This document shows, piece by piece, positions 22,001-59,841 of a stretch of 64,000 nucleotides of DNA. Made by a program: the position numbers and the translations under genes. The DNA comes from Flectonema sp. DT1601 (Eukaryota), in NCBI GenBank assembly GCA_964019425.1, contig OZ025787.1:620001-684000 (forward strand), read 5' to 3'. A model generated the notes under the pieces. That model made no database searches, was not told the DNA's origin, and saw only the letters and a list, made by a program, of their open reading frames with translations. The stretch's first letter is position 1. The number at the start of each line of letters is the position of its first letter.

Positions 22001-22779
22001 CATCAACTAAAACTATTGCTGATGCAAAAACCAAAACTGCTGTAACAAATATAGTGACACCCAGTTTGATTGCTACTCACTCGTTGTCTTCAATTGTTAG
22101 CAGCACTGTAACTAATGATGGAGAGACATCGTATGGCAGCATCACATCATCTCTGCCAGCAACTGAATTAACATCAACACCGAGTAGCAGCATCACATGG
22201 ACCGCTCCTCGCAGTATCAGCGCCACTACAGATATCACGAAAACGTTTTCTCGAAGTGTCACTAGTGATGCCACAATCACACCGATTGCGGATATTGCAA
22301 CCGAGACACTGACGATGGATGTTATCGTTGTGCGTGGTGTTTTCAACAGCGGGAACTGCATTACGTTTCTGTCCAGTGCGAAACAGATTGCAGATTTCGA
22401 AGACATAACAAAAGAAGTTCTGAAAGTTGTGAAGGCTGCATTCTCATATGAGTGTGGGAGTGTAATATTTGAAGTCACTGTACCCCTTCGTAACCTTACT
22501 GAGAGTTCTCGATTGACGAAGCTGACCGAGAGCAAGGATTTTGAAAGTGAATTAGATTCGAAACTCCGAGAAACCAAAAACAGAGACTTACTAAACACTC
22601 TTGGATTACTAACAAATGATATCCCAATCCCTACTCCGATGACTCCGACTGATGATCAGTTGGATACTTCTTTGATTATATTAGTAATTGTAGGTGGGGT
22701 CGTTGTGGTGACCCTCATCATTCTAATTCTGTGGAGATCGTATAGAAGGTCTCGTCGAAAAGCTCAATTACCAACTTAG
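16052..22779 (+). CDS. Subtilase-CUB-mucin copy 2, lacking the I9 propeptide; exons 16052-17036, 17102-22779 (2220 aa)
   Basis: Same intron and intact D/H/N/S motifs. In-frame loss of 73 codons after the signal peptide. Confidence 0.88.
17960..21990 (+). repeat. 45-nt coding minisatellite (TPTVGTTTQTAADTT) of copy 2
   Basis: Directly visible 15-aa periodicity. Confidence 0.95.
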
Positions 22780-24636
22780 AGACGAGCCGCTATGAAAAAG
22801 AATATAGAGTTCGTTAGTTTCGCATCTCATTTCAATCGCTCATATATGTGACTCACTATCAGTCACTCATAATTAGTGGCAGACCTGCCAGTACTGTTTT
22901 TTTCCTGCCTTTAAAAAGTATTGTAAAGAGCTAAGAAAATTGACTATCCCCGTAAACCTGCTTAAGTCAGTTCACGGTTTCGTTGCACAAGCAAAAACCA
23001 AACATCGCACCATTCTATAGTAGTCAATTCTATTTTTTTAAAATTATTATTTTTTGCATCTCCGTTTTTTCTCCCTTTTCCTTTTCTCTAATCGAGCGTC
23101 AACAAAACCAAACTAACATCTTTCTTTTAAGTGAAATCGGTTTCAAAAAGCAAAAACGTTTTGTGTGTTCGTAAAGGGTTTTCTGATCTGACTAGCAGCC
23201 CTATGTAAGTGATTCTTTAACCCCATTGTTGCCTCGGAATTACTAAACTAAATCAAAGGCTTAATTGTATTTTTATTTGTACCGCCGTATTCAGTACGGA
23301 GACGAAACTATTCAGATTGAAAGCAGCCGTTATTTCTAATGGTCAAAGTTATTGATTTATTTTCCACCTTGTGACGAGATTCTGTCTGCGTTCAACGAAA
23401 TATCAGGCAATAATCTGAATAGTTTTTTTTTTTTTAAATTTGTGACTCATTTTTTACGTGTGACGAAATAATCTTTTTTTTTTGAGTTATCTGTGACAAC
23501 AAGTTATCTCAATTTCATCACACGCGTTAGAAAAACTGATCTTCCCTGACTGTGGCTAATTGCCTAATATTCTTTTTATATTTTTCTTTTGTACCGACGA
23601 AGTCGGAGAAGAAACTATTCAGATTGAAAGCCGTTATTTCTAATGGTCAAAGTTATTGATTTATTTTCCCGACAGGATTCTATCTGCGTTCAGGGAAATA
23701 TAACGATAAGGTTAATCTGAGGGTTTTTTTTGTTGCTCCCCAGTTTTTGTCGAACTGGAAGGCATTCTGACAGTGTCAGTTTGCAACAAAATCAAACAAA
23801 CAAAAATCTTTGTTCGCTGTGTGTGAATCTTATTACTACTCAACCAGTAGACAGAACCTACATCGTCAAGTCAGCTATCAATCGCTTCTCTCCCCAGCTA
23901 TTTTTAGTCATATCGTAAATGACTTCTCAAGCGACGGATCTCTCTGTTCTCCGAGCTGTGCTATTGACTAAAAAGGTTTTTGTTCTCAACAAACAACGTC
24001 TTCTGGTCAATGGGACAAAAAATGTAATTTTCCCTTTTATCTTTTTTTTTTCTAAACGTATCTTTTCTTTGATTAACGACTACGAATATTTTTTTCCAGT
24101 CAAGTACTTGATATTAATCTTGTTTTTAATACACTGTTTTTGTATTGTCAAAGTTTCACCCCCAGTTTTTGGAAGGCATCCTGACAATAGCAGTTTGCAA
24201 CAAAATCGAACGAACAAAAATCTTTGTTCGCTGTGTGTGAATCTTATTAGTAGACAAAACCTACATCGTCATGTCAGCTATCAATCGCTTCTCTCCCCAG
24301 TTATTTTTAGTCATATCGTAAACGACTTCTCAAGCGACGGATCTCTCTGTTCTCCGAGCTGTGCTATTGACTAAAAAGGTTTTGTTCTCAACAGACACGT
24401 ATAGTGATGTGTTCATACAAATTGCAGGGACCAGTGTTACACTATAGTCATTTCTCTTTGAATTGATTTGGTATTGTTTCATTCATTTGCGAACTGTACA
24501 TACAAATACTCTCACCATTACAGATTGATTAATTCATGGTGTGGAATCTGATGACCAATGAGGTAAAAGTGTATAGTTAGTTTTATAATTTCAAAAAGTA
24601 TTTTCTCACCAGGACAGTCATCACTATCCATAGAGA

Positions 24637-27600
24637 ATGCCATGTTTACTTCAATTGATAATCGTATTACTAATAGTACCGTATTCGGTGAATGGAGAAA
24701 ATAGTGTCGGTAGGTGGATTATACTTGTGCGGCAGGGGAGTGATGAAGACGCAGTGGACAGACTGAAGATGGAACTGAAAGGGAAGTTAAGAAAAGAGTT
24801 CTTTATTGGGAGAAATAGAATATTGAGGGCTGTGATGTCTTCTGAAGAATCTGAACAACTTTATCACGACTTCAATGAAGAAATTGAATCAATAGAATAC
24901 GACGCCCAAGTTCGCGTTGCATCACTGACTTGCGGAGATGAACAATCAACATCTTCTACTTCCTGGGGGATTCGTTCTGCGACTTCGAATACAGTTGATG
25001 GTGGGGTACCTTCGACTTTTAGATATAATCAGTCATGGGGTCAGGGTATTGATGTTTATGTTTTAGATTCGGGTGTTGATTGTTCTCACAGTGAGTTAAC
25101 TAATTGTGAATTTGGAACAATCACATCGGAAGCTACCACTAGTGACGATATCCACGGGCACGGAACTCACGTTGCTGGAACCATCGCTGGTCAAGAACAC
25201 GGGATCAGTAGATCTACAAATATAATCTCTGTAAAGGTTATGAATGATAATGGTGGTGGTAGTGTTGGTGACATTGCAGAAGGGATCACCTGGGCTATCG
25301 ATCAGGTTAAACTAAAAACTGGAAGAGCAATTATTCACTTATCTTTGGAAGCTCCCAAATCAGCAATACTTGACAACTCTGTAAACGCTGCATCTGATGA
25401 AGGGATAGTTGTAGTTACATCTGCTGGTAATGGAGGTACAGATGCCTGTAATGTCAGTCCAGGGTCAGCTGTGGAAAGTATTAACGTTGGTAATGCTGGT
25501 ATTGAAGAAAGCCGTGGAGGAACTTTTCAATATTACATAGCCGGACTTTCTAATTGGGGTTCCTGTGTTGATGTTTTCGGACCTGGTAGGTTTATCGCCT
25601 CCGCGAGATCGAATACGATCGATTCTGAATCCACCATGTCTGGTACTTCCATGGCCGCCCCTCACGTCACTGGTGCTGTTGCTGCGTATCTCTCTGACAA
25701 CCCAACAGCCAGCGTTCAGGAAGCTAAGAACTTCATTATTAGTAATTCAGTTATTCGTTCAATGACTTTTGTTAATCGTACTACTGGTGTTCCTGTTAGA
25801 AGCACCCCTTCGGTGAAATTCCTTAATATTCCCTGTGATGGTATGTCTGGTTGCTATTTTATTGAAGCAAGGTGACTTTATAAATTATTATAAATTAACA
25901 AACAGGATCGATACAGGAGAATCCTGTAGGGTACTTAGCCACTGAAAACAACTGTTTTGAAGATTACGAACTTTTTGAAACTGCAACCGGAGCGATTGAC
26001 TGGCCTACGGCGGACGACGTGTACCCAGATAGCCATGAAAAGTGTTGGAAGATATTATGTGAAGGTGAGAGTAGTTATCTTCAATTTCAATGGGACTTAG
26101 ATATTGCATCTGAGGATAAACTGTTGATAGGAAACGAAGTACCTACTTCCGATTATTTGAGAGGATCTCAAGTACTAAGGTTTACTTCAGAAAAAGATGA
26201 AAAAGACTCGAAGCGATACGAAGGGTTTAGTTTAACATATTGGTGTTCAACTCAATTTGCCACACCTCTTCCTACACAAACAGCTTGTACACAATTAGAA
26301 GCAGGTCGAAGTACTAGTACTTTTGCTTATCCAAGTGAGGGTAATTATGAGAACAACCTTGATGTTTGTTTTCAAATTGACTGTTCTGGTGGTCAGGTTG
26401 TTGCTCATTTTAACTACATAGATGTGGAGTTGGGTTCTGATTTCTTTTACATCTATTCAAATAGTCCGAATTCTCATAATAGATTTACTGGGCCTCGCAA
26501 TGCATTTGATGCAACTTATTATGATTATTTAACTATGAAACTTACGTCTGATTCATCCGTACGGAAAAGAGGATTCTCTATCAGATATTCTTGTTCTTAC
26601 ACCAATACACTTACAGTTGGGCCCGAGTTACCTCAAGCACACAATAACACTCACACGATACCTATCGTTACTGATACTTCATCCACAACGAGTGACATCA
26701 TTACATCAACTCTGACAGCTGAAGAATTTACAGCAACGCCGAGTAGCACAACTACTTCAACTGTTGCTGAAACAGCTACGGAGACTGCTGCTGATACAGC
26801 AACTCCAACTGTTGGCACAACTACACAGACTGCTTTTGATACAACAACTCCAACTGTTGGCACAACTACACAGACTGCTGTTGATACAGCAACTCCAACT
26901 GTTGGCACAACTACACAGACTGCTGTTGATACAACAACTCCAACTGTTGGCACAACTACACAGACTGCTGTTGATACAACAACTCCAACTGTTGGCACAA
27001 CTACACAGACTGCTGTTGATACAGCAACTCCTACTGTTGGCACAACTACACAGACTGCTGTTGATACAACAACTCCAACTGTTGGCACAACTACACAGAC
27101 TGCTGTTGATACAGCAACTCCAACTGTTGGCACAACTACACAGACTGCTGTTGATACAGCAACTCCAACTGTTGGCACAACTACACAGACTGCTGTTGAT
27201 ACAACAACTCCAACTGTTGGCACAACTACACAGACTGCTGTTGATACAGCAACTCCTACTGTTGGCACAACTACACAGACTGCTGTTGATACAACAACTC
27301 CAACTGTTGGCACAACTACACAGACTGCTGCTGATACAGCAACTCCTGCTGTTGGCACAACCACACAGACTGCTGCTGATACAACAACTCCAACTGTTGG
27401 CACAACTACACAGACTGCTGCTGATACAGCAACTCCAACTGTTGGCACAACCACACAGACTGCTGTTGATACAGCAACTGCTGCTGTTGGCACAACTACA
27501 CAGACTGCTGTTGATACAGCAACTTCAACTGTTGGCACAACTACACGGACTGCTGCTGATACAACAACTCCTACTGTTGGCACAACCACACAGACTGCTG

Positions 27601-33770: not shown

Positions 33771-35163
33771 AGACGAGCCGCTATGAAAAAGAATATAGAG
33801 TTCGTTAGTTTAGCATCTCATTTCAATCGCTCATATCTGTGACTCACTATCAGTCACTCATAATTAGTGGCAGACCTGCCAGTACTGTTTTTTTCTGCCT
33901 TTAAAAAGTATTGTAAGAGCCAAGAAATTTGACTACACACGTAAACCTGCTTAAGTCAGTTCACGGTTTCGTTGCACAAGCAAAAACCAAACATCGAATC
34001 ATTCTGTGTAGTCAGTTCTATTTTTTTATAATTATTATTTTTTATATTTGTGCATCTACGTGTTTTCTCCCTTTTCCTTTTCTCTAATCGAGCGTCAACT
34101 AAACCAAACTAACTTCTTTCTTTTAGGTGAAATCGGTTTCAAAAAGCAAAAACGTTTTGTATGTTCGTAAAGGGTTTTCTGATCTGACTAGCAGCCCTAT
34201 GTAAGTGATTCTTTAACCCCATTGTTGCCTCGGAATTACCAAACTAAATCAAAGGCTCAAAGGCTCAATTGTATTTTTATTTGTACCGCCGTATTCAGTT
34301 CGGAGACGAAACTATTCAGATTGAAAGCAGCCGTTATTTCTAATGGTTAAAGTTATTGATTTATTTTCCACCTTGTGACGAGATTCTGTCGTCGTTCAAC
34401 GAAATATCAGGCAATAATCTGAATAGTTTTTTTTTTTTAAATTTGTGACTCATTTTTTACGTGTGACGAAATAATCTTTTTTTTTGAGTTATCTGTGACA
34501 ACAAGTTATCTCAATTTCATCACACGCGTTAGAAAAAACTGATCTTCCCTGACTGTGGCTAACTGCCTAATATTCTTTTTATATTTTTCTTTTGTACCGA
34601 CGAAGTCGGAGAAGAAACTATTCAGATTGAAAGCCGTTATTTCTAATGGTCAAAGTTATTGATTTATTTTCCCGACAGGATTCTATCTGCGTTCAAGGAA
34701 ATATAACGATAGGGTTAATCTGAGGGTTTTTTTTGTTGCTCCCCAGTTTTTGTCGAACTGGAAGGCATTCTGACAGTGTCAGTTTGCAACAAAATCAAAC
34801 AAACAAAAATCTTTATTAGCTGTGTGTGAATCTTATTACTACTCAGCCAGTAGACAGAACCTACATCGTCAAGTCAGCTATCAATCGCTTCTCTCCCAAG
34901 TTATTTTTAGTCATATCGTAAATGACTTCTCAAGCGACGAATCTCTCTGTTCTCCGAGCTGTGCTATTGACTAAAAAGGTTTTTGTTCTCAACAAACAAC
35001 GTCTTCTGGTCAATGGGACAAAAAATGTAATTTTCCCTTTTATCTTTTTTTTTTTTCTAAACGTATCTTTTCTTTGATTAACGACTACGAATATTTTTTT
35101 TCAGTCAAATACTTGATATTAATCTTGTTTTTAATACCTAAAGTTGTTACTGTTTTTGTATTG

Positions 35164-36115
35164 GTCCGGCGCAGTTATGACCTTAAACTGACTGTCATCT
35201 TACCTGATCCTTTTGGTTTTCATTTCTTGCTGAGTGATATGGCTATGTGCTGCCCAAATCTTTTGTGGTACATTTCTAAAGCTTTTCGGTAAGCCCACAG
35301 TACACTTATAATGCTTGGACAACTGGGGGTGAACGATCCTCGGTACTGTTCCGGGGTTTTCTATTTTCTTTCGTGGAGTGTGGGCATATGGCACATGTGG
35401 TCGTATTATAAAGAAAGATGTATATGAAAGAAAGAAGATTTTTTATTTTTTTCACCTTCCCCCCACTCCCAGATCATTTCTCTTTTATTTTATTTAGTTG
35501 TTTACAACCTATTAGCCTCTGGGCAAGGTAGAGGTTGGAAGTCGATCACTTCCAGCCAATACTATGAAACTACAATCTTCGCGATTGGGTCCTTACTGAT
35601 GCGGGCTACCCAGACCCCTCGTAGTCATCAGTTTGTATTTTGCTAACTAACTAACACCCATGTGCCGAAAGAAGCGTCTTCGTTCGTCTGGCGGTGCCCC
35701 GAGTCTCGGACACCTCTATAGAGTACTGTCTGAGCATGAGTGGAACCTTTTTATTTTCTTATTATTCATCCCCCATAAACATAACTCAGCCCCACTCATT
35801 TTGTTGGTATTCCGCGTTCACTGATATATTTATATAGGGGGACTGTGTTAAATGGTGGAAGAAATAACCATGTTGACGTGGTTCCCTTGGCTGAGAAGGG
35901 CAAACGCGATGAGTAGGACAGGCCTGACACCGCAGTGTCCCCCTTACTTTCTTTCGCTGAAGAGGGCTGGGTAAGGGGAATGGTCCGAAGAAAGATTGTT
36001 TTTAATCTTAGCCCGAAACCAACTTGTTTGTTGTCCTACGAAATTTTGCCTTTTTTTTGATTAACTGTCACTGATAATTATTAATACTAACTAACTAACT
36101 TTTCTTTGATACTAA
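35164..36115 (+). mobile_element. 952-bp non-coding retroposon-like insertion with a (CTAA)n tail and a 97-bp target-site duplication (35067-35163 / 36116-36212)
   Basis: The flanking direct repeat is present only once in the paralogous spacer (~24062-24147). No convincing ORF. A hammerhead candidate lies near the 3' end. Confidence 0.8.
35940..36021 (+). ncRNA. Candidate non-circularly permuted hammerhead ribozyme
   Basis: CUGAAGA 35957-63; stem II 35964-71/36007-14; GAAA 36015-18; stem III UGG 35981-83/CCA 36019-21; GUC cleavage after 35985; stem I 35986-94/35947-56; extra helix 35940-47/35971-78. Confidence 0.75.
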
Positions 36116-36701
36116 CTTTTCTTTGATTAACGACTACGAATATTTTTTTCCAGTCAAGTACTTGATATTAATCTTGTTTTTAATACCTAAAGTTGTTACT
36201 GTTTTTGTATTGTCAAAGTTTCACCCCCAGTTTTTGGAAGGCATCCTGACAATAGCAGTTTGCAACAAAATCGAATGAACAAAAATCTTTGTTCGCTGTG
36301 TGTGAATCTTATTAGTAGACAAAACCTACATCGTCAAGTCAGCTATCAATAGTTTCTCTCCCCAGCTATTTTTATTCATATCGTAAATGACTTCTCAAGC
36401 GACGGATCTCTCTGTTCTCCGAGCTGTGCTATTGACTAAAAAGGTTTTGTTCTCAACAGACACGTATAGTGATGTGTTCATACAAATTGCAGGGACCAGT
36501 GTTACACTATAGTCATTTCTCTTTGAATTGATTTGGTATTGTTTCATTCATTTGCGAACTGTACATACAAATACTCTCACCATTACAGATTGATTAATTC
36601 ATGGTGTGGAATCTGATGACCAATGAGGTAAAAGTGTATAGTTAGTTTTATAATTTCAAAAAGTATTTTCTCACCAGGACAGTCATCACTATCCATAGAG
36701 A

Positions 36702-42013: not shown

Positions 42014-43267
42014 CGACACACCTCTGTGGGGGGAGTTGTTTAGTTATTTTAATGAATTCACGCAATTGCCTTTTGATTTCAATTGTTTATTATCAAGGCT
42101 GCTGAGGTGAAAAAAAAATATAAAGTTCGTTTGTTTCTTTTTGTTTTGTTGTTAGGTACGTTAGATACGATAGTTGCTTCAGAAGAAGCCAATTTGTTTT
42201 TTGATTTTTTATTTATGCATCCATCGATTCTTTTTTAGATTGTGAACTGTCGCATGATTTATCCCTTTTTTTAAAATTAATCGATTTGCGATATGCTATT
42301 CTGATTGTTTATCTTTTCTGTTTCCGAAGTGATAATACGATATGCCGTGGGGTGTGTTCGCATCTCATTTCAATCACTCACCTCGGTCACTCACTATCAG
42401 TCACTCATACATAGTGGCAGACCTGGTTTTTTGAAACTTTGTGTTGAAATACGGAATTTTGAAAATTTTTATGCGGAATTAGGGGTTTTCCCTTCTGAAT
42501 TTAGCAAGAATTGTAAAGAGGTAAGATAATTGACTACATATGTAAACCTGCTTAAGTCGGTTCACGGTTTCCTAAGTCAGCTCCAGTTATTTTTAAGTCA
42601 TATCGTAAATGACTTCTCAAACGGATCTCTCTGTTCTCCGAGCTGTGCTATTGACTAAAAAGGTTCTCAACAGACACGAATAGTGATGTGGTCATACAAA
42701 TTGCAAGTAAATGCATTAGCGACAACGTCTTCTGGTCAACGACAAAAATATGATTTTCCCTATTTTGTTTTGTTTTTTTAAACATACCTTTTCTTTGATT
42801 AACAACTGCAAATCCTTTTTCACGTACTTGATATTAATTTTATTTTTAATACCTAAAGTTGTTACTGTTTTTGTATTGTCAAAGTTTCACAGTTTTTGGA
42901 AGGCATCCTGACAATAGCAGTTTGCAACAAAATCGAATGAACAAAAATCTTTGTTCGCTGTGTGTGAATCTTATTAGTAGACAAAACCTACATCGTCAAG
43001 TCAGCTATCAATCGCTTCTCTCCCCAGTTATTTTTAGTCATATCGTAAACGACTTCTCAAGCGACAGATCTCTGTTCTCCGAGCTGTGTTATTGACTAAA
43101 AAGGTTTTTGTTCTCAACAGACACGAATATTGATGTGGTCATACAAATTGCAGGGACCGCGTTAGGCTACAGGTGAAAGTGTCGAATCCAAAACAAGAGA
43201 GAATGGATAAGTATTTTTATTATTTCCTTTAAACAGATCTCCTTGAATTATCTTGTGATCCACAACA

Positions 43268-45562
43268 ATGAGACTACGTACCACATGGATGGTTGTCAGT
43301 TGTGGAGTCGTGTCAACCGTTGCATCGCTAGCGGCAGGGTTGATAATGTACCTTGAGGGGTTGGTTGTAATTGAGCATACTGTTGAGGAGACAGGGCGAG
43401 CGGATTTGCAAGCGATTGCGAGAGAAGGGAGGGCCAGCTTTGAAACAACAGAGAACAGCACTGCTCGGATTGGTGACATGTTAAACAATCTTGATAACTA
43501 TCCGGACTACGAATCCTTCTCTAAGTGGATGGCTGTGAGATCGATCGCTGAGATATACCGCAGCAACGTATTAAGTGGAGCAGGAATGCTTTCGTTTAGT
43601 ACAGACAAGAATCAATCCAGACGAATAATGGACTTGTTGTGGTATGATCTCCACAGGGACCGCTCACGTCACTATGTCCATGCTCAAGCGAATGCCCTTA
43701 TTGATACGCCTTCTTGTGGTTACCCGTGCGTCGTTGCATTTGCAATCCCTGATCCAAACACAGCAGCACGGGGTCCTAATATCTATAACTTTACAACCAG
43801 ATTGTTGGATGATCCCAATGTAAATGAACTTCTCGATACTGGCATTGCTCCTGGTACTTCGTGGTGGTCTAACCCCCTGATCTGGTTCTCTAGTGATGGC
43901 AATCCATATGTGTACCTCATTAATTTGAGACTGTTACCGCTGTCACCTAGGCACAGCATTCTTTCAGGGATGCAATCGATAGCTAAGTCCGACATGTTGA
44001 CGGAGCACTGGAGAAAGCTCATGGCCAAGTACACAACAGAGGCTAAGGTTCTTATTACGCAAGTTGCAAGCGGGCGCGACAGTATTGTGCTGACAGGCAA
44101 CTTTCCGGAGGCCGAGGTCGACAAGGACTGCAAAGCTGGGTTCCAACAGGAGGGCCTGGAACGGCCGCCGTGTCTGAAATACGTCTTGAACCTGACGGAA
44201 GAATTCCAAAAACTGGTAGGCGAGCTCAATAACACGGCCAACGGACATTTTCGCAGAGGGTCTTCGTACTGGATGATGAAAGATTACTTATTTTTGAAGG
44301 GCAACAGCCGAGGAGCTCTGGACGACATCTACCTGATGTGGTTTCGAAGCATTTCATCTGTGAATGGACAGCTGAACCGCGCCTTGTTCCTGCTGATCGC
44401 GTTTTCTGTACTTGTGGCGTCATTCGACCTGATGATTGGGTCTCTGGAGATCTTCTTCATCGCTAAGCCTCTCGGCAGGCTGGCAGAGTCGACGGTTCCC
44501 CTCTGCAGGCTGGATCTGGTGGCTGCGAACAAGCTGATCGATCCCTGTTTGGGGAGTTTCATAGCAGAGTGTCAGGATCTCGCGAACGGGCTCGCATTCG
44601 CAACAGCAAGTCTCGATGAGTACAAGGCGTTCCTTCCGAAGAGTCTGTTCAGTCAAAGCGAAGACTCTGACGGGTCGCCGGCTCCATCGCAAAATTCTTC
44701 GAAGCCTTCCTCGCAGGTGGGGGATTCGAACTCGTCCAGGACATCAAAGAAACCTCAACATGTCGCGGGACCTGCTGCTGCACTCAGAGTGGGCCTCGCG
44801 AAAACACCATTGACTGCAATAAAAGTAAAGCTTAGTGATGCTATTAAAGAGAAGTCCTTCATCGAAGCCCTCTCAGTGATGGAATCTGTTGTTTCTTCGC
44901 ACAGGGGAACACTGCATCAGTTTTACGTAGCAGACCCCAGCATGCAGTGCGCAACCTGGCAGGGTGTCAGCAGCTCGGTGATTGAAAGGTGTTGTCAGGT
45001 CGCCATACACATGAAGGAGATGAAGCATCATGCTGTTATCATATCCGAACCGGGATGTAGGAGTGGTAATTTAGGATCGAGTACAATACGATCATTTGCA
45101 GTTACGGGAGTGATCGAGAAAGTCATAGGACCGATGCTGGATATTGCTATGTGGCTGGGAGCGCAATCATCTAGTGCTGTGATATTGACAAGCAAGGGGT
45201 GTGCGGTGAAGGTGCAAAGCAGTATCAAAACCAGCGTACTTCTCAGTGCCCGAATCCACCTGGAACTTCACACACTGTCAGAAATCGTCGGTCAGGAACA
45301 AGTGCAGCAAGAAGAGTGGATGTACACAATGGAAACAGGTGGTACCGGCAATGTGATCGCAAACTTGAAAAATGCGGGTGGAGTCATCACGGAGAAAGAC
45401 CTCGTTGCTCTGCAGAGCGAGGTAGACAAGGGAAAGTGCTCCCCTTCCTTCAAGTACATGTTAAAACTGGCACAGACAAATGTCGGTGATGCGTTCATGA
45501 TTACTCACGGTGCGGTGCAAGTAGGAGATAAGCATCTGTCAACACAGTGCATTCCAACATAA
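43268..45562 (+). CDS. Receptor-type membrane protein: TM, extracellular domain, TM, HAMP-like linker, degenerate class III nucleotide-cyclase-like domain (764 aa)
   Basis: Two hydrophobic helices. KPLGRLAES...ECQDLANG...YKAFLPKS linker, then GTLHQF, SGNLGS...RSF and EEWMY. Catalytic aspartates are not evident. Intronless. Confidence 0.6.
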   Translation: MRLRTTWMVVSCGVVSTVASLAAGLIMYLEGLVVIEHTVEETGRADLQAIAREGRASFETTENSTARIGDMLNNLDNYPDYESFSKWMAVRSIAEIYRSNVLSGAGMLSFSTDKNQSRRIMDLLWYDLHRDRSRHYVHAQANALIDTPSCGYPCVVAFAIPDPNTAARGPNIYNFTTRLLDDPNVNELLDTGIAPGTSWWSNPLIWFSSDGNPYVYLINLRLLPLSPRHSILSGMQSIAKSDMLTEHWRKLMAKYTTEAKVLITQVASGRDSIVLTGNFPEAEVDKDCKAGFQQEGLERPPCLKYVLNLTEEFQKLVGELNNTANGHFRRGSSYWMMKDYLFLKGNSRGALDDIYLMWFRSISSVNGQLNRALFLLIAFSVLVASFDLMIGSLEIFFIAKPLGRLAESTVPLCRLDLVAANKLIDPCLGSFIAECQDLANGLAFATASLDEYKAFLPKSLFSQSEDSDGSPAPSQNSSKPSSQVGDSNSSRTSKKPQHVAGPAAALRVGLAKTPLTAIKVKLSDAIKEKSFIEALSVMESVVSSHRGTLHQFYVADPSMQCATWQGVSSSVIERCCQVAIHMKEMKHHAVIISEPGCRSGNLGSSTIRSFAVTGVIEKVIGPMLDIAMWLGAQSSSAVILTSKGCAVKVQSSIKTSVLLSARIHLELHTLSEIVGQEQVQQEEWMYTMETGGTGNVIANLKNAGGVITEKDLVALQSEVDKGKCSPSFKYMLKLAQTNVGDAFMITHGAVQVGDKHLSTQCIPT

Positions 45563-48437: not shown

Positions 48438-50197
48438 TTAGATCTTCCCCCTTTTTCACTTACGGTAGCGTGCTCAACTACGTTCACGTGGCCTCCACCA
48501 AAGAAACCAGGCAAAATGTTCAATGCCTCCTGTTTCATGGTGACAGTACTTTTATTTTTTGTGCAAAGACCTGCAGTATTCTTCCCAGATATATCTTTTC
48601 GTATCGTATCAATTTCCCCCTCTTTTTTTTCTTGTGACTTTTTTTTCTTTTGGAGTGATCCAAAAAAGTAATATTAGGATGTTGAAACCCGCAGCGTTGT
48701 TCTAAAGAATCAAGCTACTTTAATAGTTACTTTGATTGGCACAATACGTAAATATCTGCAGCGAAGTGTATTTTCAGGGTTTGCATGAGAGCTTAATTAG
48801 TCTTTTTTACCGACGACCGTGACAAGAGGCAGCTCATCTGCGTCTTGCACTTTTAAAGTGAATTTTCTCAGACAAAAATCCAGCTGACAGGGAAAAGCAA
48901 AGGAATCAGCATGTGTTTTCTTCCCGATGGGGGAAAAACAAAAAAAACATTGTGCTCTCGTCTGTCTTCTGGGATAGAGCTGGGGAAAGAGAGAGTTCTC
49001 TCTCTGCGTTAGCAGCGTTTCGAATCCCAGCAATATTTCTCAGTTAGAGGAAGCAAAAGTCATAACAAGGTTGCTGTAGGTGAACCTGCAGCAGATTATT
49101 ACCAAAGTCCTTAAAATTATTCTGGCAATCCATGCTGCGACCTCGAAACCGGCTGCTGCTTGAGTTACGAAGCATGGATTAACATCCCATTCTTTGTGTC
49201 TTTTTTACAATTTTCCTTTTTCCCTCCCTCATTTCTGTTACTCTTTTAGTAGCGTGTTATATGGGCTCCGCTATATTGATTCTTTGTAACTGCTAACATT
49301 CGGCGCATTGTTCGATTTACTAAAATGTTATTACCTTTCTGACAGCACGTATTTTGTTTTGTTAGGCAGTACAAGTAACTTTTATTTTCGTTCCCTTTTT
49401 TTCCCCCCTTCGAACTATTTGAAAAATGAAAAAAGGTAAGTCTACACAACAAGTTAAATAATCTACAAAACCTTTTTTTTCATTTTATTTTCTTCCTCTC
49501 CTTTTTATTCCCTACCCTCAAGTTTTAAAAAGCCCCGCTGTTCAGCATGGAGCAGATAACGGAGAAAGTAATACACAACATGAAAAAATGAATTCCGTTC
49601 CCTCTTGTTCTCTTGGTCTAATATCAATTTTAAATTGAAGTTGAAATTGGGTTTTTCTAAAATTTATCTTTCCCACAAGGTAACACCAACAGCATGATCT
49701 GTATTCTCGTTGCTTTTATTACTCTATGCTTCCGTTAATGCTACTCAATCAGACTGATGAAGCCTGCTCTTTTCATTCAGATTTAAAGAAATGTACGAAG
49801 GCTTCGACCGTGTTTGAAGAATGTTTGTGCCTCGTTGGCCATTTGATCAGATTTTTGAACCATTGTCTCAAGCTTATCATGTCTCCCCGGTGGCTGTAGG
49901 CTTTTTTATTTACTGTAACTACAAATAACATGGATGGCATACAAAAAAAAAAGCTCATCTATCTTCGGTGAGTCGGCCAGCAGTCACAAACGGACATTGA
50001 AAGCGCGGATAATTGTTGTTGCTGTGGAAACCTTGCTCTGCTGAAGAGGGAGTTGAAATTTTCCCCACCTGCATTCTGATTCAAGTTGTCTTCGAGAGTA
50101 CTTGAATCAGAATACTTGCTTTTGTCAAAAAGCTACTTATTCCTCCAGCTCATACGTCCTTCTCATCTTTTCTGGAGACTGGACCGCTGGTGAACGC

Positions 50198-50356: not shown

Positions 50357-50774
50357 TTTTAACAAAGCTTGCGAATCAGCCTGCGGGGGAGGAGGGGCGG
50401 CTGGGGGTAGCGACGGGACCCACGCCGGAACTGGCAAGCCTGAAGTGCGAGGGAGTAATTAGCCTTCCTATACTGTATGCACCTGGGAAAGAGAAGTATA
50501 CCTAATTGAATGAACATGCAGTTAACAAGTCTGAGATCACAAAGAAGAATCTACACTGTGGTGCAGATTACTTCTGCGTAGGGGTTGTACCGGGCCGTTT
50601 CGATTCGACGGGACACCGGCGGGGGAAGGGTGGGTGGGACTTAATTTAAATATAAGTTTTCTTGTGATGAAGACAGGGGTGTGAGAACTGATAAAGGGAT
50701 AGAAATATTTGATATCGTCAGAAAACTAATAGAGACATTGACCTATATAAATAAATAAGGAACGGCGATTATGT

Positions 50775-50846
50775 GGCTACATAGCTCAATTGATAGAACG
50801 CCGGTCTGAAATAATGGCGGTCGAGGGTTCAAAACCCGCTGACGGC
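50775..50846 (+). ncRNA. tRNA-derived (Phe-GAA-like) element in repeat A2, with a broken acceptor stem
   Basis: 72-nt canonical spacing: A box TAGCTCAATTGATAG, anticodon loop CTGAAAT, B box GGTTCAAAACC, then T5 at 50849-53. Confidence 0.75.
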
Positions 50847-50980
50847 GGTTTTTGTTTGGTGCTCAGTTTCGGTGGCAAATTACCTAAATGGAATTTTGAT
50901 AATTAGCCTTCCTATACTGTATGCACCTGGGAAAGAGAAGTATACTTAATTGAATGAACATGCAGTTAACAAGTCTGAGA

Positions 50981-52700
50981 TCACAAAGAAGAATCTACAC
51001 TGTGGTGCAGATTACTTCTGCGTAGGGGTTGTACCGGGCCGTTTCGATTCGACGGGACACCGGCACCACCACCACCACGCGAGTTAAAGAACGACCCCAA
51101 CGCTTGTTCAACCTTCGCTCTCGTTCCGTGTGAGACTTCCTCTCGAGAAGGAATGTCTGCTGGGTTTAGCTTCGTGCTTACCCAGGCAAGGGAGTAGGAA
51201 CATTTCAAAACTAAAAGGCATTCAATCGCAGTTATCAAACACCTGTTGAGACTGTGTGAGCGAACACACATCTTCTTCCTAAAAGCACCACAAACTGTAG
51301 TGTTGTCAACCCAGATGGAAAGGTGGTCGGCCTTTGAGTGTCTGTCCAAGAGCGTCCGCTTCAAGGATATTTATATGTCGGTCTTCACCAGCAGGCCATG
51401 CCGCACCAAGAATTTCCAGCTCACCTGTTTTCCAAACGATGACACCTCCCCATCCCTGCAATGAGGCATCTACAAACACTTCGGCAGTCCTCCCCTCTTT
51501 CTGCTCAGGCATAATTATTCTCTCCTTCTGCACAGCACCGATCCACATTTCTAATTCCCTCCTTACTGAACGGGGCAATTTTAGTACCTGCTGTACTTGT
51601 AGGGTCCCCTTGTTCAAGTAATTTGTGACCCTGCGAAGATACTTCAAGCTAAACCAGTACTTCCCAGGTGGAACTCCAACAATGGAGCTGGCATGCAACA
51701 GGCGACCTCCTAAGGACTCCAACTCCGATGCAGTCAATGAATCAAGGTTGGTGTTCTTGATTTTTCTCCCAATCTTGGTCCCCAAGCTCACCCTGTCCGT
51801 ATGGTGATCAAAGGTGACCCCCAAGAACTCATACTCCGGAGAGAGATCCACAGTATCACTTGGTTTCCATGTGATGTTTGCCATTCTGGCAAAGGAGTCC
51901 ATCCTCTCAGCTGCGCATTTAACCTTCTCCTTGGGACCAAATAACCTAATGTTATCGATCCACCAGTGAATCCAACGGCATCCTGCAGGGACTTCAAGAC
52001 TGGATTCTACCAGGTCTGCATACCTGAGGAGTCAACTTCACTCTTCAGTTTCTCTGATTCGGCTGGGAAGGTTTATTCTTTGACTCGACTTCCGATGGGT
52101 CATGTGTGTGCCCCAGAATTGATGAACACCATCGCTGCAGTAGTTGCTGGTGACCCGCTGTTCGTTAAGAAAGAATTTGCGGAGGAGGAAACCTCCGAAT
52201 GTACAGCATCCAGGTAACAAGAAATGTGCTGCAGTGGAACGAATGGTTCATATCCCCCAGACGAGATCAGTTCGTTCTGCTCTTTTGTCCAGAGGATGAA
52301 CCGCTGTCTGTTCCCCGTCTCCCTCTCCTCTCATACACTGTAAATGGTACATTCCGAGACAGCGGTACAGAATCACTCGGCACTGCAATACCACACTCAA
52401 CCAATTCTCTTGCATGTTTCTCTGCCAACTTCGAAGTTGCCCTCTTCGAGAGCCGTGCATTGACAGAAGAATCCCTAGGAAAGAAGGTGAGGTTCCAAAC
52501 ATAATCAAACCTCTTCAGGACCGATGGCAACATCCTCCCCCTTACAGCTGAAACATCCATCTTAGGTGTAGGGGCCACATGTAGTGGTGAAGATATCTCC
52601 TCCTTCGTTATGGGGATGCGCGTGCTCTTTGTTCTGTGCGTGAACTGCGCTGCTACGCCCCGCATCACATCCCGTTCACTCGCATTCTTTGATCTATCAA
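50981..52700 (-). pseudogene. RT/RNase H of the YR element, disrupted by frameshifts (~52330, ~51340) and an internal inversion
   Basis: Minus strand: NVPFTV, RQRFILW, WIDNIRL, EFLGV, and RH motifs VDAS, HINILEA, VDNTT, NPADIPSR. Plus strand: RDFKTGFYQ and RLPMG. Confidence 0.85.
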
Positions 52701-53915
52701 CTACAGGAAACAGGTGACATCCCCTGTCTTTAACGCCCTCGCCATTGCAATTGGGTTTCCGCCGTACCTCAGCGTGGTGTCTGAAAGGGCCGACACTCCT
52801 GCATGCTTGGCCAGCCTGCTTATCAGCCCTTCTGTGAGTCCTTGCTGCTCTTGGTCCGATGCCAGAACCTCCAACAGATGACTTATCGCACCTCTTTTTA
52901 TTGAGTGGGCGGTGTATCTTTTCATCCTGCCGTCCTGCTGGAACGTTTTCACTAATTTTGACGTGTCCCACGGGTGTAGTTTTTTGAACTCCCCCATCGC
53001 ATCCAGCAAGATCTTTATCTCTTCTGTGTGATTCCCCTTTATCACCGTCCATCTGCTTGGCGAGTAAGGGTTTGCCCTCCTTCCCTTCGGCGTGCGGAAC
53101 CAATCTATAATAATCTCTGACGGACTTACAGAGATGAACTGGTCCCTTGAGAGCGCTGCGGTCTCGCCCCATCTTGATGCAGTCTTCCAGCACACTAGCA
53201 TTGCCAAGTGGGTCTTTAAGTCTTGCCCCCTTGCCCAATCCACCAGGTCGAAACTTGTCATTGGCGTTGCCTGTTCCAGCGGTATTGCCGCCCCGTTCGC
53301 CCTCAGTGCTGCAGCCAAGCTCAACAGCGGTCCGTTTTCTATTCCGATCCTCCCCATCACTGCAGACAGACTCTTTGCATAAGAGAGAAGCCCTTGCACT
53401 GCCACACCTGTCGCCATCACGAACAGAACAGCCGAGCTTGCGTTTGCTGGTTTCTCCTTTTCCCTTGCCCAGGCCCGAAATCTTCTCCACAGATTCCGCC
53501 TGCTTGCTGTTGTCTTTGAGGCCCACATCTTCTCCAGTGTTTCTTGAAGCTTTTCTGTCGCCTCCATGTATGTGACGGAATCCTCGGCATGCCGCCTCTT
53601 CGTCCCCTCTGGGCATCCCTCCATCATGTCCAACAGGATCTTCCCAACCACATTTCCTTCTAATCCTTCTGAGGGCATTGTTTCCGTTGAATCTGCGATC
53701 TCTTCTGTTCCAACTGAGCTTATTTTCATCTCCCTTCCGCTGGGGAATCCTCGGACTGCGGATTTTACAATGTTGTCCGGGTCTTGAACGATTAAACTTA
53801 CAGATCCTCCTAACCTTGCTTTTAGTCGGCTGCTCCTCAACACCTGTCTTGAGTGCTTCTGCATAAGTCTTGCGGGCTTTCTCAACTTTAACTTTGGCAA
53901 TGGGGATGTTTCCAA
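52701..53915 (-). CDS. Tyrosine recombinase of the YR retrotransposon
   Basis: Catalytic set R (SRWGE), K (PKG), HxxR (HSIKR), H (AKH) and Y (LRY) is intact. Start codon uncertain. Confidence 0.88.
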   Translation of the reverse strand: METSPLPKLKLRKPARLMQKHSRQVLRSSRLKARLGGSVSLIVQDPDNIVKSAVRGFPSGREMKISSVGTEEIADSTETMPSEGLEGNVVGKILLDMMEGCPEGTKRRHAEDSVTYMEATEKLQETLEKMWASKTTASRRNLWRRFRAWAREKEKPANASSAVLFVMATGVAVQGLLSYAKSLSAVMGRIGIENGPLLSLAAALRANGAAIPLEQATPMTSFDLVDWARGQDLKTHLAMLVCWKTASRWGETAALSRDQFISVSPSEIIIDWFRTPKGRRANPYSPSRWTVIKGNHTEEIKILLDAMGEFKKLHPWDTSKLVKTFQQDGRMKRYTAHSIKRGAISHLLEVLASDQEQQGLTEGLISRLAKHAGVSALSDTTLRYGGNPIAMARALKTGDVTCFL

Positions 53916-53984
53916 TACTTGCGTGTCTAACCTTCGTTTTAGGAACGTTGGTTTTGTTGTTACTTGCAGGGTCCGGTCGGCTGG

Positions 53985-55223
53985 TCACTTCGCGAACCCT
54001 CTCCCGTTTCCCGACGATGGATACGTAGAGACAAACGATCTCCCCCCTTTCCGTTTCGGTTGTTGCATCTTCGCATTTCTATTTCTCTTCGCTATTGCGT
54101 TTGCTTTCTCCAGAGGGTCCTCCGATGCAACTTCTAAGATCATCTCCAACTCTGATCTCTTCGTACCATCCTTGCAAAAGTAATACTGCATCCGCAGTTG
54201 CTCCAACAGCTCGTTCCCCAACTCCACAAAGTGCGGGTTCTCCTCCCACCCTTCAACGTACTCCAAACCGAGAACGAAGTTCTTCAACTGCCTGAAGAAG
54301 CCAAGTAGCTGGCCCCCACCAACCTTGTACTCCAGACCGTTCACATATCGCTCCCTGATCCCATGGATCAGTGCCTCGGTCTTTCCTGACTTCATAACGG
54401 ATGCCCACTTTGTTACATCCCTGCCTGCAGACGGATCAGTCACCTCCCGTGTCATCGCTTCGTTCGACCCCGGTGCTGGTAGTTGCTGTGCTGCTCCCCC
54501 GACTACTGGAACTTGTTGAGCCGTAGTCAACCCGTTCTTCAGATCTGCTATTTCTTGTAATATTTTTTGGATCACTTCCGCATTCTGCTTTTGCTGATCT
54601 CTCTGCTGTTGTGTGATTTGCTGGATAACGCTAGCTTGTTGTTGTTGTTGTTGGGCCTGTTGTTCTCTGAAGGCCTCCCACATGCCTCCGATGTTCTCGG
54701 CTTTTTCAGTGGCCTCCCCAACCCTTCTCCTCACTGATTGGCTCTCCCTCTGATACTGGCTAAACGCCGTCTGCGTTTCGCTTCTCAGCGAGTCGAACCC
54801 CTGCTTGGTATCACTTCTCAGTGTGTCTGTGCTCTGCTGCAGCGATCCCATCGCATCCGCCTCGTCGTGCGTCACCAGCCTATCCGACCCCCCCTTAGAT
54901 ATCCGCTCGCTCATCCGGGCGGCGCTCTGGTTGACCAACTGCAGGCGGCTCCTTGATAACACACCAAGTATTACTAGACACTTATTCATCGAAAGTGTCT
55001 TGGCCGCATCATTGGAGATCCCGAGACACATGGCCAGTGTGCCTTGGATCAACCTTCTTGTCTCCTTGTCGGATCTCAATGTACTTAAGTCGATGCTAAA
55101 GGGGATGCTTGCAACCAGCTCGTCCAGATTGATATTATCGAGCTTCTTTGGTGGTTCCTCACCCATCTGCGCCTTCCAAGTCTCAATTAAGAACTCAGGG
55201 AACTCAAAATTTACACGAGTCAT
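53985..55223 (-). CDS. Gag-like ORF1 of the YR retrotransposon (412 aa, coiled-coil/Gln-rich)
   Basis: First ORF immediately after repeat A1. Assigned by position only. Confidence 0.7.
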   Translation of the reverse strand: MTRVNFEFPEFLIETWKAQMGEEPPKKLDNINLDELVASIPFSIDLSTLRSDKETRRLIQGTLAMCLGISNDAAKTLSMNKCLVILGVLSRSRLQLVNQSAARMSERISKGGSDRLVTHDEADAMGSLQQSTDTLRSDTKQGFDSLRSETQTAFSQYQRESQSVRRRVGEATEKAENIGGMWEAFREQQAQQQQQQASVIQQITQQQRDQQKQNAEVIQKILQEIADLKNGLTTAQQVPVVGGAAQQLPAPGSNEAMTREVTDPSAGRDVTKWASVMKSGKTEALIHGIRERYVNGLEYKVGGGQLLGFFRQLKNFVLGLEYVEGWEENPHFVELGNELLEQLRMQYYFCKDGTKRSELEMILEVASEDPLEKANAIAKRNRNAKMQQPKRKGGRSFVSTYPSSGNGRGFAK

Positions 55224-55401
55224 TATTTAACTTAATTTAAATATAAGTTTTCTTGTGATGAAGACAGGGGTGTGAGAACTGATAAAGGGATAGAAATATT
55301 TGATATCGTCAGAAAACTAATAGAGACATTGACCTATATAAATAAATAAAGGAACGTTTTTTATTTATTTAATAAATAAATAAAAGGAACGGCGATTATG
55401 T

Positions 55402-55473
55402 GGCTACATAGCTCAATTGATAGAACGCCGGTCTGAAATAATGGCGGTCGAGGGTTCAAAACCCGCTGACGGC
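55402..55473 (+). ncRNA. Second, identical tRNA-derived element in repeat A1
   Basis: Same sequence as 50775-50846. Confidence 0.75.
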
Positions 55474-55527
55474 GGTTTTTGTTTGGTGCTCAGTTTCGGT
55501 GGCAAATTACCTAAATGGAATTTTGAT

Positions 55528-55682: not shown

Positions 55683-55746
55683 GCCTTCCTATACTGTATG
55701 CACCTGGGAAAGAGAAGTATACTTAATTGAATGAACATGCAGTTAA

Positions 55747-58700
55747 TATCATTAATTTTAGAACAGAAAAGTGAGAATAAGAAAAGTAGAGATCAATAAA
55801 AGAAAAGTATTCATTTCTGCAGTTTCCTAACATCAAAGGGTAATAGAATATGTAGTTTCAGGCCTTAATCTTATACTACTTGTCCCTTTTTAGGCCTTCA
55901 TCAGTAAGTTCTAAGGGACTTCATTCTATGTTGAAGTTGCTATCGTTCAAAGATAAAAATCCATCGGAGCTCGCCAGGATAGGGCTAGCAATGTTTATTT
56001 GCTTTTGCTCAATTTGAATTTTTGACGTCTGATCGTTTCACTATTACAGTCGAGTTAATGGATGAGTCGTCATCCAATTTGCGTTTTACTTTATCTTCGC
56101 ATATCATCAAAGGTCCTATATTCGCTGGTGTCATCGTAACATCCATATCAGTCTGAGCTTTTAATGGTATCATATGGAAACTATACTCTGTAGTTCGGTA
56201 CATCTTGTCAAAATGATCGAAAGGGAGTCTTAAATCTTTTGTGCCTTTAAGAATGTCTCGGATGATCATGGACTCAAATGAGACTAGCGCAACAATAAAG
56301 TGAGTCATCCTTGTTTTCGCTTTATGTAGAATAAGTGCTGCGGCTGCTTCAGGATAATCGAAATCTGCTGGGTTAACGAAGTACTCGATTCTTCTGTTGA
56401 ATTTAGTCATGCAAGCCATGTTAAGTACTTGTAGCGAGAACCAACCATCTGGTGATGGTTTATGCTCTGAGTTGTTCGGTTCTACTTTAAGAGATTCTTC
56501 ATAAAATCGCTGTTGGTAGTTTTGCAGAAAACTGAAGTTAATTCTATCGATATATAAATGATCTGCAATGAAGTTGAGCGCTGCCCATCCGCATTCTCCA
56601 CCGAGAAGACCTTCTCCTGATGTTTGATGTAGGGATGGTGGAAATCGTTTATCCAAGGAATGGCTTGTAGAGCCTGTGTGGTTAATTGTATCCTTTTCGA
56701 TGCTTAATGGGACTTTGTGACTAAACTTCTCAAAAGTAAGGTTGATACGTCGACGCATTGCAGCTGCTGTATTACCATCATCAATGTGAGAGCTAATGAA
56801 GCGGAGGCATGCTGCTCTGATATTGTCAGATTTATAGCCCCGGTTGAGTAATCTATAAGTTACCGCTTCAAGTTCCTGTAAAAAGTCTGCCTGGTTGTTG
56901 CAGATTTTTAGAGCTCGTAAGATCATGGTGGTAAAGATACCTGAACCCATTGATTCTTGAGCTGCGGAATGCTGATGAGTAAACCTTGTTGGCGTAATAT
57001 GCCAACCCCTGGCTTTGTCATTAACACTTAAACGAATCCATCGTTTATTTGTGTTAGTGATCTCTATTCGGATACGAATTCCTATATAAGAGACATCATC
57101 AATATTATTCGAAGTATCAGTGTAATCCATTGAATATAGACTTGCTGGTGGAGGGTCGCAACTCCAGGTGAGGAAGTCGTCGATGTATCTACACGAGTGG
57201 TCATGTTGCCGAGCTAAGTCTAGATTTTTTGCTTCAATTAAAGAATCGATATATGCGGATTCAACTCTATAGCAGTAGAGATTTGCTATATCGCTACTGG
57301 CGTTGCCACCCATTGGAATGCCTATTGTTTGTCTCCAAATATAACCTCTTAATGCAATAAAGGAGGAGTCAATACAGAATTCAAGTAATTTTTGACATTC
57401 TGCAAGCGCAAGAGAAGGGAATCGTGTAGGGTCACTCGATTCAAGACGTAAGATATTTTTGAAACTAAAGGCTTCTTGCAGTGCTTCACTTACTTTAGTT
57501 TTAATAGCGTTGTGTGGTAGGCGGGTGTACATTGTTGTAAAATCAAAAGTCTTAGGGGATAATTTTTTCAAAACCATCAAATTCTGTTTAATCGAACTAG
57601 AGACTTCATCATCTGATTCCACAATCCAGTATCGTTTGAACCGTGAATGCATATCTTTCTCTTTCAATATAGTCATCGCATTTTTAAGGATACTAGAGAG
57701 ATGTTGGTGCGCATATGTTGTTGCTGTTGCAGGTGCAAGATTATGATCCTTATCGTATTGTCGTTGTTCTGCTGTACCCGTGAAGGATGAGACACCAGTA
57801 ATCCATCTCATCCCGATAGCTGATTTGTGTAATTTAATCATTCCATATAGGTGTGGGAGTCGATCAGAGTGGCGGGCATTGATTGAAATGTTCATGTTCT
57901 TGAGGTTGGCTAGTAGAGTTGGTTCGTCTGATGTGATGCGTTCATAAGAATCACTTTGTAGCTGCTCTCGAAGTAAAAGCAAATAATTTATTTTACACAT
58001 GTAACCAATATCGTGCTGTCCTTTGTCAACTTTAAGAAACACAAACTGAGATTGAAGATTCTGAAGTTCAGTCCATGCTTTATTTGATAATGGTGAGTCA
58101 AGAAAGCTTAAGTCTTTACTTAATTTAAGCTGCAATTGTTTAAGAATTGTGTTTTTAAAGATCGATTTAAAGTTATCGCCAACGTTCTTGTATGCGTGAG
58201 TTATATATTCAGTAATATCATTTTCAAGTGATTCTAATGCAGCTGATGGGTGCACTGGGACTCTAAATTTTTGACCTCGTGCGAAGAAGTCTCTTAGTTC
58301 TTCTGAGACTGGTAAATCAATAGCGAGTCCGCAAGAATGGCCGTTGTATTTTAAACTATTCAGTTCTTGAGTACTGCAATTGCAAGTAGATTGAGTCGGG
58401 GAGTCTGAATTGATGCTTGTTGAAGATGCATTTAAGACGATATCACCAACTGTTGTTCCAAGTTTGTTACAGATGCGTGTTCTTTCAAGAGTTCTTAGAC
58501 AAGGACAGGTTGCTTTAACTTCATCACATCTAAGAACAGCGCCAAGACCAATACGATCTAATGCTTTGTGGCCAAGATTCAGTTTCAACCAGTAAGTGTC
58601 CGAATCCTTCTTCTTGTTTTCCCTTCTGAGATTGGCAGGATTTAGTCTTTGCATGAAACAATGCTCCAGCTGTTTTACGCGGGCAGTGTAATGTTCTTGA

Positions 58701-59841
58701 AAAAAGTTACTTCTAAGAAACTGCAAGACTTTTGTAGTGGAGCGTGTCTGCCAACGCGAGAAGTCGTATTCAACGAATTCTTCGTCAGTAAGCTTAAACA
58801 AATAGTTAAGCTTTGACGGGATCCATTTTTTATCCGTTGCGACTTGAAAAGAAACACCTGTTTCTAGTGTTATTGTTGTTGGTTGCAATGTATTGGAGGA
58901 CGTTGTGCTGCTCACATTGTAACCGTCATCTGCTACTTCGTTGAAGTTGTAGAAGTTTTCTGTAGCAAGATGTTGTTGTCTTACAGGTGGAGGTTGGCGG
59001 TTGTTTCTTGTGCGATTTCTGTTCGTACTCAATTTTGGTGCATAATAGCCACGCGTATTTAATAGATTTTTAAAGGAATTAATATAATACTGTTCACGTG
59101 GTGCGGCAGCTCTGTAGAAATCCGCTGCGTTGTTGTAATTGCAATCCGGAATCTTTTCTAGCGGCATGGCTAGGAGTGGGAATCTCTGCTTTGCCAGGAA
59201 CTCATAAAGCTTGTTCCCCTGGTAGCTGTTGTCCCTTGAGTGCTTTTTCGCAGCATACCAGTGGGAATGAACTCGCTTCATTGTAGAATTATACGTTTGC
59301 CCTACGTATACTACTTTCTGGTCTGATCTTCTAAAGAGTGCATAAATGACTCCGGGGGTACGCATTCCGGGTTGTCTGCCTCTTATTTTGCGGCGTTGTA
59401 AAATTTTCCTTTGGAAAATATGGCGTTGACGGTTACAGTTACTCTCGTAAACTGACCAATCTATTCCGCCGTTTCGCTGCTTGTTTCTGTGCGCAGCTCC
59501 TTCATTATGCCAATTAAAATGGGCTTGGCTAGAATGCCAGTTTGCGCGGGAACGTCCATGTTGGCGTCGAATTCTATGTTGTGGGTGTTGTGTAAAACTG
59601 TGTCTCACTTCTCTTACTGATGACTTTCTCCATGGATTAGAATTGTAAGAGGGAGGCAATGCTCGTTCAATGATTAGACGCATTTTACCAGCACCTACGG
59701 ATCGAACTGCTGCACTGATTGCAGCAAATGGGAGCTCTTTCCTGTTTTTTTGCTCTATCATAATTTTTAAAGTGCTTCCTGATTGCACTATCTTCCTTAA
59801 CTGGAAGTCTCTTAAAGGTAGCACTCTAAATAGTGCTGTCC
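55747..59841 (-). mobile_element. Penelope-like retroelement with N-terminal endonuclease (Naiad/Chlamys-type), 5'-truncated, 15-bp TSD TGAACATGCAGTTAA
   Basis: TSD at 55732-55746 and 59842-59856. One long ORF with GIY-YIG followed by RT. Hammerhead candidate in the 3' UTR. Confidence 0.9.
55852..55919 (-). ncRNA. Candidate non-circularly permuted hammerhead ribozyme in the PLE 3' UTR
   Basis: Minus strand reads GUCCCUU-agaa-CUUA-CUGAUGA-AGGCCU-aaa-AAGGGAC-aa-GUAG-UA^-UAAG-auua-AGGCCU-GAAA-CUAC. Predicted cleavage is between 55874 and 55873. Confidence 0.78.

Follow-up and report, generated by a model that had tools for sequence, protein, structure and literature searches.

A non-coding retro-insertion in the 64-kb stretch of DNA analysed here (the window) ends in a hammerhead of the CSG order, a non-circularly permuted type comprising helix X, stems I-III and the core, with every hammerhead part present in scrambled order (Table 1). 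We regard it as probable that this RNA cleaves itself after C35985 and that the element carrying it is copied in trans by a Penelope reverse transcriptase (RT) of the Naiad/Chlamys type. The architecture is not new, being described in the parts of Eckert et al. 2023 (PMC10085705) used here as type CSG with the same extra helix; it is the element context of this known fold for which the literature search returned no precedent.

Parts and pairing of the permuted hammerhead

The first-pass annotation had proposed a permuted hammerhead at 35940..36021, and all of its parts were found where they had been placed. The 5'-to-3' order of the blocks is C, S, G, the sole order scoring among the six. CUGANGA lies directly between the stem I and stem II strands in block C, a UH cleavage site, with C35985 as the last base of the GUC triplet, lies between the stem III and stem I strands in block S, and GAAA lies between the stem II and stem III strands in block G. 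Stem I is formed by 35952-35956 with 35986-35990, contains one bulge and could be extended past this bulge or into helix X, stem II by 35964-35970 with 36008-36014, and stem III by the four pairs of 35981-35984 with 36018-36021. Helix X has eight Watson-Crick pairs, ten being possible with an extension, and a duplex energy of -16.1 kcal/mol, equalled by 2 of 500 random segments; the corresponding energies in this copy are -7.7 kcal/mol for stem I, -11.7 kcal/mol for stem II and, computed without its A-U pair, -3.3 kcal/mol for stem III. Judged from its sequence, the motif has all the sequence and structure features of type CSG, with cleavage as a prediction, and the position of the cut is predicted by likeness to the tested type-CSG RNAs. 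The nested three-way junction order of canonical type I, II and III hammerheads, the kind known from PLE pLTRs and retrozymes, is not present. When 35940..36021 is folded with nested pairs only, helix X and stem III form, whereas the crossing stems I and II do not; this shows a competing fold within the model, though such a model cannot represent the knot.

A descriptor that allowed blocks C, S and G in each of their six orders, applied to both strands of the window, gave exactly two matches, with cores at 35957 (+) and 55904 (-) and predicted cuts after 35985 and 55874, respectively. Both are of the CSG order with helix X, which bears out the earlier proposal that the same permuted order recurs at 55852-55919. 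These two matches compare with no CSG match in 60 block-wise dinucleotide shuffles of the window, which gave two matches of other orders in total, an outcome that favours the annotation. The distance from motif end to insertion end, put earlier at about 95-105 nt, is 95 nt and 105 nt in the two cases, and the elements were rightly called unrelated in sequence, their best local alignment score of 24 being reached by 19 of 200 shuffles. An Rfam search found neither window motif and nothing at the insertion; a miss of both motifs is expected, as nested covariance models cannot represent the CSG order. ARAGORN likewise made no call in the hammerhead or elsewhere in the insertion.

Table 1. Coordinates of the hammerheads, the insertion and the Penelope element in the window
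Feature	Position	Strand	Remarks
Type-CSG hammerhead	35940..36021	+	Descriptor match; layout as in the Eckert type-CSG consensus
Helix X, 5' strand	35940..35947	+	Pairs with 35971-35978; connects stems I and II
Catalytic core strand CUGAAGA (block C)	35957..35963	+	Between the 5' strands of stems I and II
Block S	35981..35994	+	Stem III 3' strand, GUC triplet, stem I 3' strand; predicted cut after C35985
Block G	36008..36021	+	Stem II 3' strand, GAAA (36015-36018), stem III 5' strand
Insertion A+B including end copies	35164-36116	+	Missing from the paralogous region; empty site ~24059-24147
Target duplication, 5' copy	35068..35163	+	96 bp, 2 mismatches relative to the 3' copy
Target duplication, 3' copy	36117..36212	+	96 bp
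Element A	35164..35655	+	Separate non-coding repeat with the same tail as B, joined 5' of element B
Element B	35656..36099	+	~445-nt non-coding, carries the hammerhead, (CTAA)n-type tail; possibly 5'-truncated
10-nt copy of target start, then 7-nt tail copy	36100..36116	+	Precedes the 3' target copy
Chlamys-like Penelope element (N-terminal GIY-YIG, CxC, RT)	55747..59841	-	15-bp target duplication 55732-55746 / 59842-59856
Second type-CSG hammerhead	55852..55919	-	In the PLE 3' UTR; predicted cut after 55874

The insertion consists of two elements

The paralogous region at 22710-24735 is without 35164-36116 and contains the empty site. A coding role for the insertion was rejected, as its longest stop-free frame is 80 codons. 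Contigs of public runs divide the insertion into two units, A and B, both of which finish in a (CTAA)n-type tail. Element A contigs, whose flanks differ from those in the window, stop at 35655 in runs X1, X2 and X4 and start at 35161-35167 in runs X3 and X4. Element B is covered in runs X1, X2 and, partly, X5, again next to different flanks; the contigs of X3 and X4 gave no cover of B, and run X7 yielded no contig on B, which is uninformative. From the short copies at 36100..36116 we infer an aborted and restarted priming. The 96-bp target duplication is unusually long, and the 3' region of element B near 36052-36065 resembles the target start and might guide priming.

Variation between copies touches the ribozyme itself. 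Two X1 contigs carry A35946>G, with the helix X pair kept as G-U, a 1-nt deletion at 35952 in the same two contigs abolishes the stem I bulge, and a loose end in X2 has, by eye, the same letters as the X1 variants. Run X5 has a decayed hammerhead core. With respect to tandem units or circles, the window holds a single copy of B, and one X1 contig contains the B tail, 66 nt and then B's first base, an arrangement which fits head-to-tail short units. The element A tail (in an X1 contig) and the element B tail (in an X2 contig) are each joined, in the same sense, to sequence that by eye resembles the 3' end of the window PLE; each joint is seen in one contig, and a contig from an RNA library is not proof of transcription. 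Sequence kinship of A or B with the PLE 3' UTR was rejected, none above shuffles being found for B. Queries with P0001 or alignment A2 returned no relatives among viral contigs.

In common with non-LTR retrozymes, element B is non-coding with a hammerhead in each unit; its hammerhead is not of type I. As a non-coding unit that carries a CSG hammerhead and probably depends on a PLE, element B would represent a new variant among retrozymes.

The 3' end of element A, at 35590-35635, has a hammerhead-like layout that is broken, with a helix X-like pair and a stem II 5' strand like that of B. It was rejected as an intact hammerhead, the last core base being C and stem I missing (by eye). Element A variants in X1 and X2 generate a GAAA ∼40 nt upstream of this layout.

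The Penelope element of the window

The PLE at 55747..59841 has two empty sites in the window, near 50511 and 50955. Its GIY-YIG endonuclease lies N-terminal to the RT and gives a weak Pfam match at residues 177-226 (E 0.14), with GIY-YIG found at the aligned place in homologues at E 6e-5 to 0.004. The CxC and DK motifs and an RT fingers insertion are present, as read by eye from the translation and pairwise alignment, and the endonuclease, judged by eye rather than by profile, is of the Chlamys type, having neither a CxxC linker nor CCHH. The element is Chlamys-like by the description in the sections of Craig et al. 2021 (PMC8557442) drawn on here. Eleven homologues of its protein were found, four of them, including the best one, named Diplonema papillatum, which makes a related protist the probable host. 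This PLE is likely to represent the donor type of RT and endonuclease for element B.

Permuted hammerheads at RT-related loci

We extended the descriptor search to 56 loci encoding related RTs, 45 from metagenomes and 11 from prokaryotic genome bins. The latter (L046-L056) are Naiad-type eukaryotic retroelements on contigs of those bins and most likely reflect contamination. A non-circularly permuted hammerhead was found at 21 of the 56 loci (19 of 54 without two duplicates), comprising nine CSG-type motifs (six CSG, two CSG with one additional base after the core and one, L052, with a 30-nt insert) and twelve of an order termed split-C, which begins with the stem II 5' strand and finishes with the core. 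Match rate depended on the 3' flank available after the stop, being 21/41 with at least 300 nt and 15/23 with at least 700 nt. All 21 matches are on the sense strand in the 3' UTR, 80-1097 nt past the stop, and downstream sequence makes up 41 of the 168 kb. Canonical hammerhead order was observed at none of the 56 loci. Shuffles of the 56-locus set gave 0.25 matches per set, none of them CSG, and those of an earlier 45-locus run 0.1 CSG per set.

The split-C motifs occur in the 3' UTRs of L003, L005, L007, L010, L011, L027, L028, L030, L033, L035, L046 and L047. This order is the closed circuit of CSG/SGC opened between the last base of the core and stem II, and falls outside Eckert's six. Reading these motifs as ordinary SGC was rejected, as in most rows the post-core bases are unpaired with the strand before GAAA and it is the upstream strand that pairs (by eye), with an alternative SGC-like pairing of three pairs possible in L010 and L046. 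At L052:4910-5045 the 30-nt insert of the CSG hammerhead lies between the core and stem II; the motif had been considered as GCS+1 and was re-read, and it is possibly an intermediate between CSG and split-C.

The descriptor selects for complementary stems I-III, leaving helix X as the unselected test of covariation. The observed helix is reached by at most 25 of 500 random segments in 21 of the 22 motifs tested, the exception being L016. Stem covariation is also seen in a block table of the two window motifs and eight loci, in which the stem sequences differ. The first-pass annotation had taken the two window instances as natural covariation, for which they are weak evidence alone, the support stemming from this wider set. 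It had further suggested that permuted hammerheads form a family linked with retrotransposition of the PLE type in this lineage; the link is supported by the 21 of 56 loci and by Naiad consensi read by eye, and the restriction to one lineage is lost, the family spanning the N-terminal-endonuclease PLE clade.

The matching loci are Naiad-type, with an N-terminal GIY-YIG motif in 8 of 21 (those long enough) and DKA in 15 of 21; a GIY-YIG motif after the RT was found in none of the 21. In a tree of the RTs of fetched loci and proteins, a quick and unfinished search with moderate supports in which kin share labels and which excludes L043 (too short) and L042 and L045 (no RT region), the twelve split-C loci all group within a single clade (SH-aLRT 91), the nine CSG-type loci all lie in another (SH-aLRT 88), and the PLE of the window belongs to a third (99). 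Within this third clade, the closest relatives with 3' flank (L001, L002, L004 and L006) gave no hammerhead match. Of the 41 loci that have 300 nt or more after the stop, 20 gave no match; a few of these (L008, L022) show, by eye, cut or one-mismatch CSG motifs. Several N-terminal-endonuclease PLE proteins carry a C-terminal deubiquitinase-like domain, UCH in L011, L028 and P0003 and Josephin in P0008 and P0010.

Relation to known hammerheads and retroelements

Eckert et al. 2023 (PMC10085705) defined blocks C, S and G and their six orders. In the sections used here, type CSG consists of two unique and near-identical sequences known only from soil metagenome DNA, with no known organism and no element context. 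Both RNAs cut where predicted, with rates of 0.004 and 0.026 per min. The authors rated the evidence for biological relevance of CSG as weaker. Compared with these CSG-1 and CSG-2 RNAs, the window motif agrees in its strand order, in where helix X lies and in the 2-nt link that precedes stem III, whereas it is unrelated in sequence, its context is a eukaryotic retro-insertion and its link between stems I and II is longer and holds a small hairpin (PMC10085705). The 35940..36021 RNA is a new example of a known, barely populated kind.

According to the portions of Craig et al. 2021 (PMC8557442) considered, Naiads and most Chlamys have no canonical hammerhead, permuted orders being outside the tests of that study. 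It flags ten 'HHR_core' rows, nine Naiad and one in the Hydra sheet, and eight 'HHR_half_core' rows with the second half 35-50 nt off; the corresponding window gaps are 51 and 38 nt, which we count as matching. Of six published consensus 3' ends inspected by eye, four (Naiad-1, -2, -3_Nbra and Naiad_Hcon; nematode) contain a complete CSG hammerhead with helix X, and seven other places read as split-C by eye, one core word having been inspected at 60 of its 62 occurrences (PMC8557442). The permuted order is the likely explanation of why Naiad and Chlamys elements were said to lack hammerheads. The window PLE resembles these N-terminal-endonuclease PLEs in its N-terminal GIY-YIG, CxC, DK and RT fingers insertion, and differs in that a diplonemid-like host is absent from the passages covered (PMC8557442).

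Like the non-LTR retrozymes (bioRxiv 10.64898/2026.07.22.740005, in the portions considered) and non-autonomous PLE derivatives (MRC1-type, PMC8557442), element B is short, non-coding, hammerhead-bearing and tied to PLEs, and one X1 contig may be a sign of head-to-tail units. The retrozymes described in those portions have type I (or type III) hammerheads and come from animals or plants, in contrast to the CSG knot of element B, which, unlike them, is also joined to a second element within a 96-bp target duplication. A literature search, with subscription journals outside its coverage, returned no paper linking permuted hammerheads with PLEs.

Proposed mechanism and alternative explanations

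We propose that slow, site-specific cleavage would occur after C35985, with helix X substituting for the contact between stems I and II (loop I-loop II), as the parts of Eckert et al. 2023 (PMC10085705) used here propose for CSG. Cleavage of head-to-tail or read-through transcripts would yield unit-length RNA ends, as in canonical PLE pseudo-LTRs and retrozymes, and a nick by the PLE GIY-YIG endonuclease would prime reverse transcription at the tail. Because the integrated copy spans the cut site, the RNA that serves as template would have to be uncut, re-ligated or tandem, with the ribozyme copied along with the rest, unless the RT jumps templates; template jumping may also have generated the A+B join and the tail-to-PLE joints. 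By analogy with the tested RNAs, CSG hammerheads are very probably active in the family, and activity of the 35940..36021 copy itself appears likely. Mobilisation of element B by a Naiad/Chlamys RT has a high probability in our view; since B and the PLE have no common sequence, it rests on the common fold, position and joints. We lean slightly towards cleavage being needed for mobility.

Short stems may arise randomly in AT- or GC-skewed sequence, where a loose descriptor could match them by chance. Such an origin is already effectively refuted by the lack of CSG matches in the 60 window shuffles, by the 56-locus scan with its shuffles and by the presence of helix X, which was not selected, and is further opposed by the strict strand and position bias of 21/21 locus matches; we consider it extremely improbable. 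A fold that is real in the family might nevertheless have decayed in the 35940..36021 copy, which would then cut poorly or not at all. The extra stem I base relative to the X1 copies, the competing hairpin in the nested model, the slow cutting of even the natural CSG RNAs (0.004-0.026 per min in the sections of PMC10085705 used) and the decayed core in run X5 are consistent with decay, whereas the core bases are all intact, the core is adjoined by at least five stem I pairs, and helices other than stem I are stable. We judge decay unlikely for this copy.

A different question is whether PLE tails harbour the hammerhead as a passenger or parasite which retrotransposition does not need, as raised in the parts of Craig et al. 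2021 (PMC8557442) considered. Some related elements are without any match, and integrated copies span the cut site, indicating that cutting was not required for that copy. However, RT clades that diverged deeply keep the hammerhead at the same position even though every stem has been replaced, and a mere passenger seems improbable to us; the hammerhead topology also tracks the RT tree, yet, as kin share labels, this shows inheritance, not need. Element B could in turn belong to a second PLE family, an autonomous one, as its 5'-truncated tail (pseudo-LTR or 3' UTR) rather than being a dedicated non-autonomous element, which would leave the ribozyme reading unaffected. PLE copies are often 5'-truncated (in the passages of PMC8557442 covered), and the 330 nt of B that precede the cut are non-coding and could be accommodated in a UTR, the cut being 484-1097 nt past the stop in CSG-type loci. 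The X1 contig in which B's first base follows the B tail 66 nt on fits head-to-tail short units instead, the tail type of B is also found in the short element A, and no contig joined B to an ORF, though the loose ends show only 30 letters; this origin is conceivable and, on these observations, somewhat unlikely.

If element B is a non-coding unit mobilised in trans, as we prefer, the retrozyme-like elements would extend to a euglenozoan-type protist. For type CSG, known until now as two orphan sequences, these findings supply a class of host, a likely role and numerous diverged representatives. They also show that the link after CUGANGA tolerates lengthening or opening. A broader proposal, to which we give even chances, is that non-circularly permuted hammerheads serve the entire Naiad/Chlamys clade and its non-autonomous partners as standard ribozyme, that this is the natural home of the CSG and split-core orders, with L052 as intermediate, and that such hammerheads are needed for the RNA ends of retrotransposition.

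Other features of the window

A repeated segment at 55230-55528 and 50639-50901 has, by eye, a tRNA-like look near 55400-55470, and ARAGORN called no tRNA in it. Long open frames at 43259-45562 (+), 52267-54078 (-) and 53985-55226 (-) have no Pfam match. Isolated fragments of eukaryotic SSU and LSU rRNA, possibly retrocopied, lie at 48958-49094 and 61672-61717. Four tandem genes with long low-complexity repeats, separated by spacers rich in short repeats, occupy 6628-42013, the fourth encoding a subtilase and a CUB domain.
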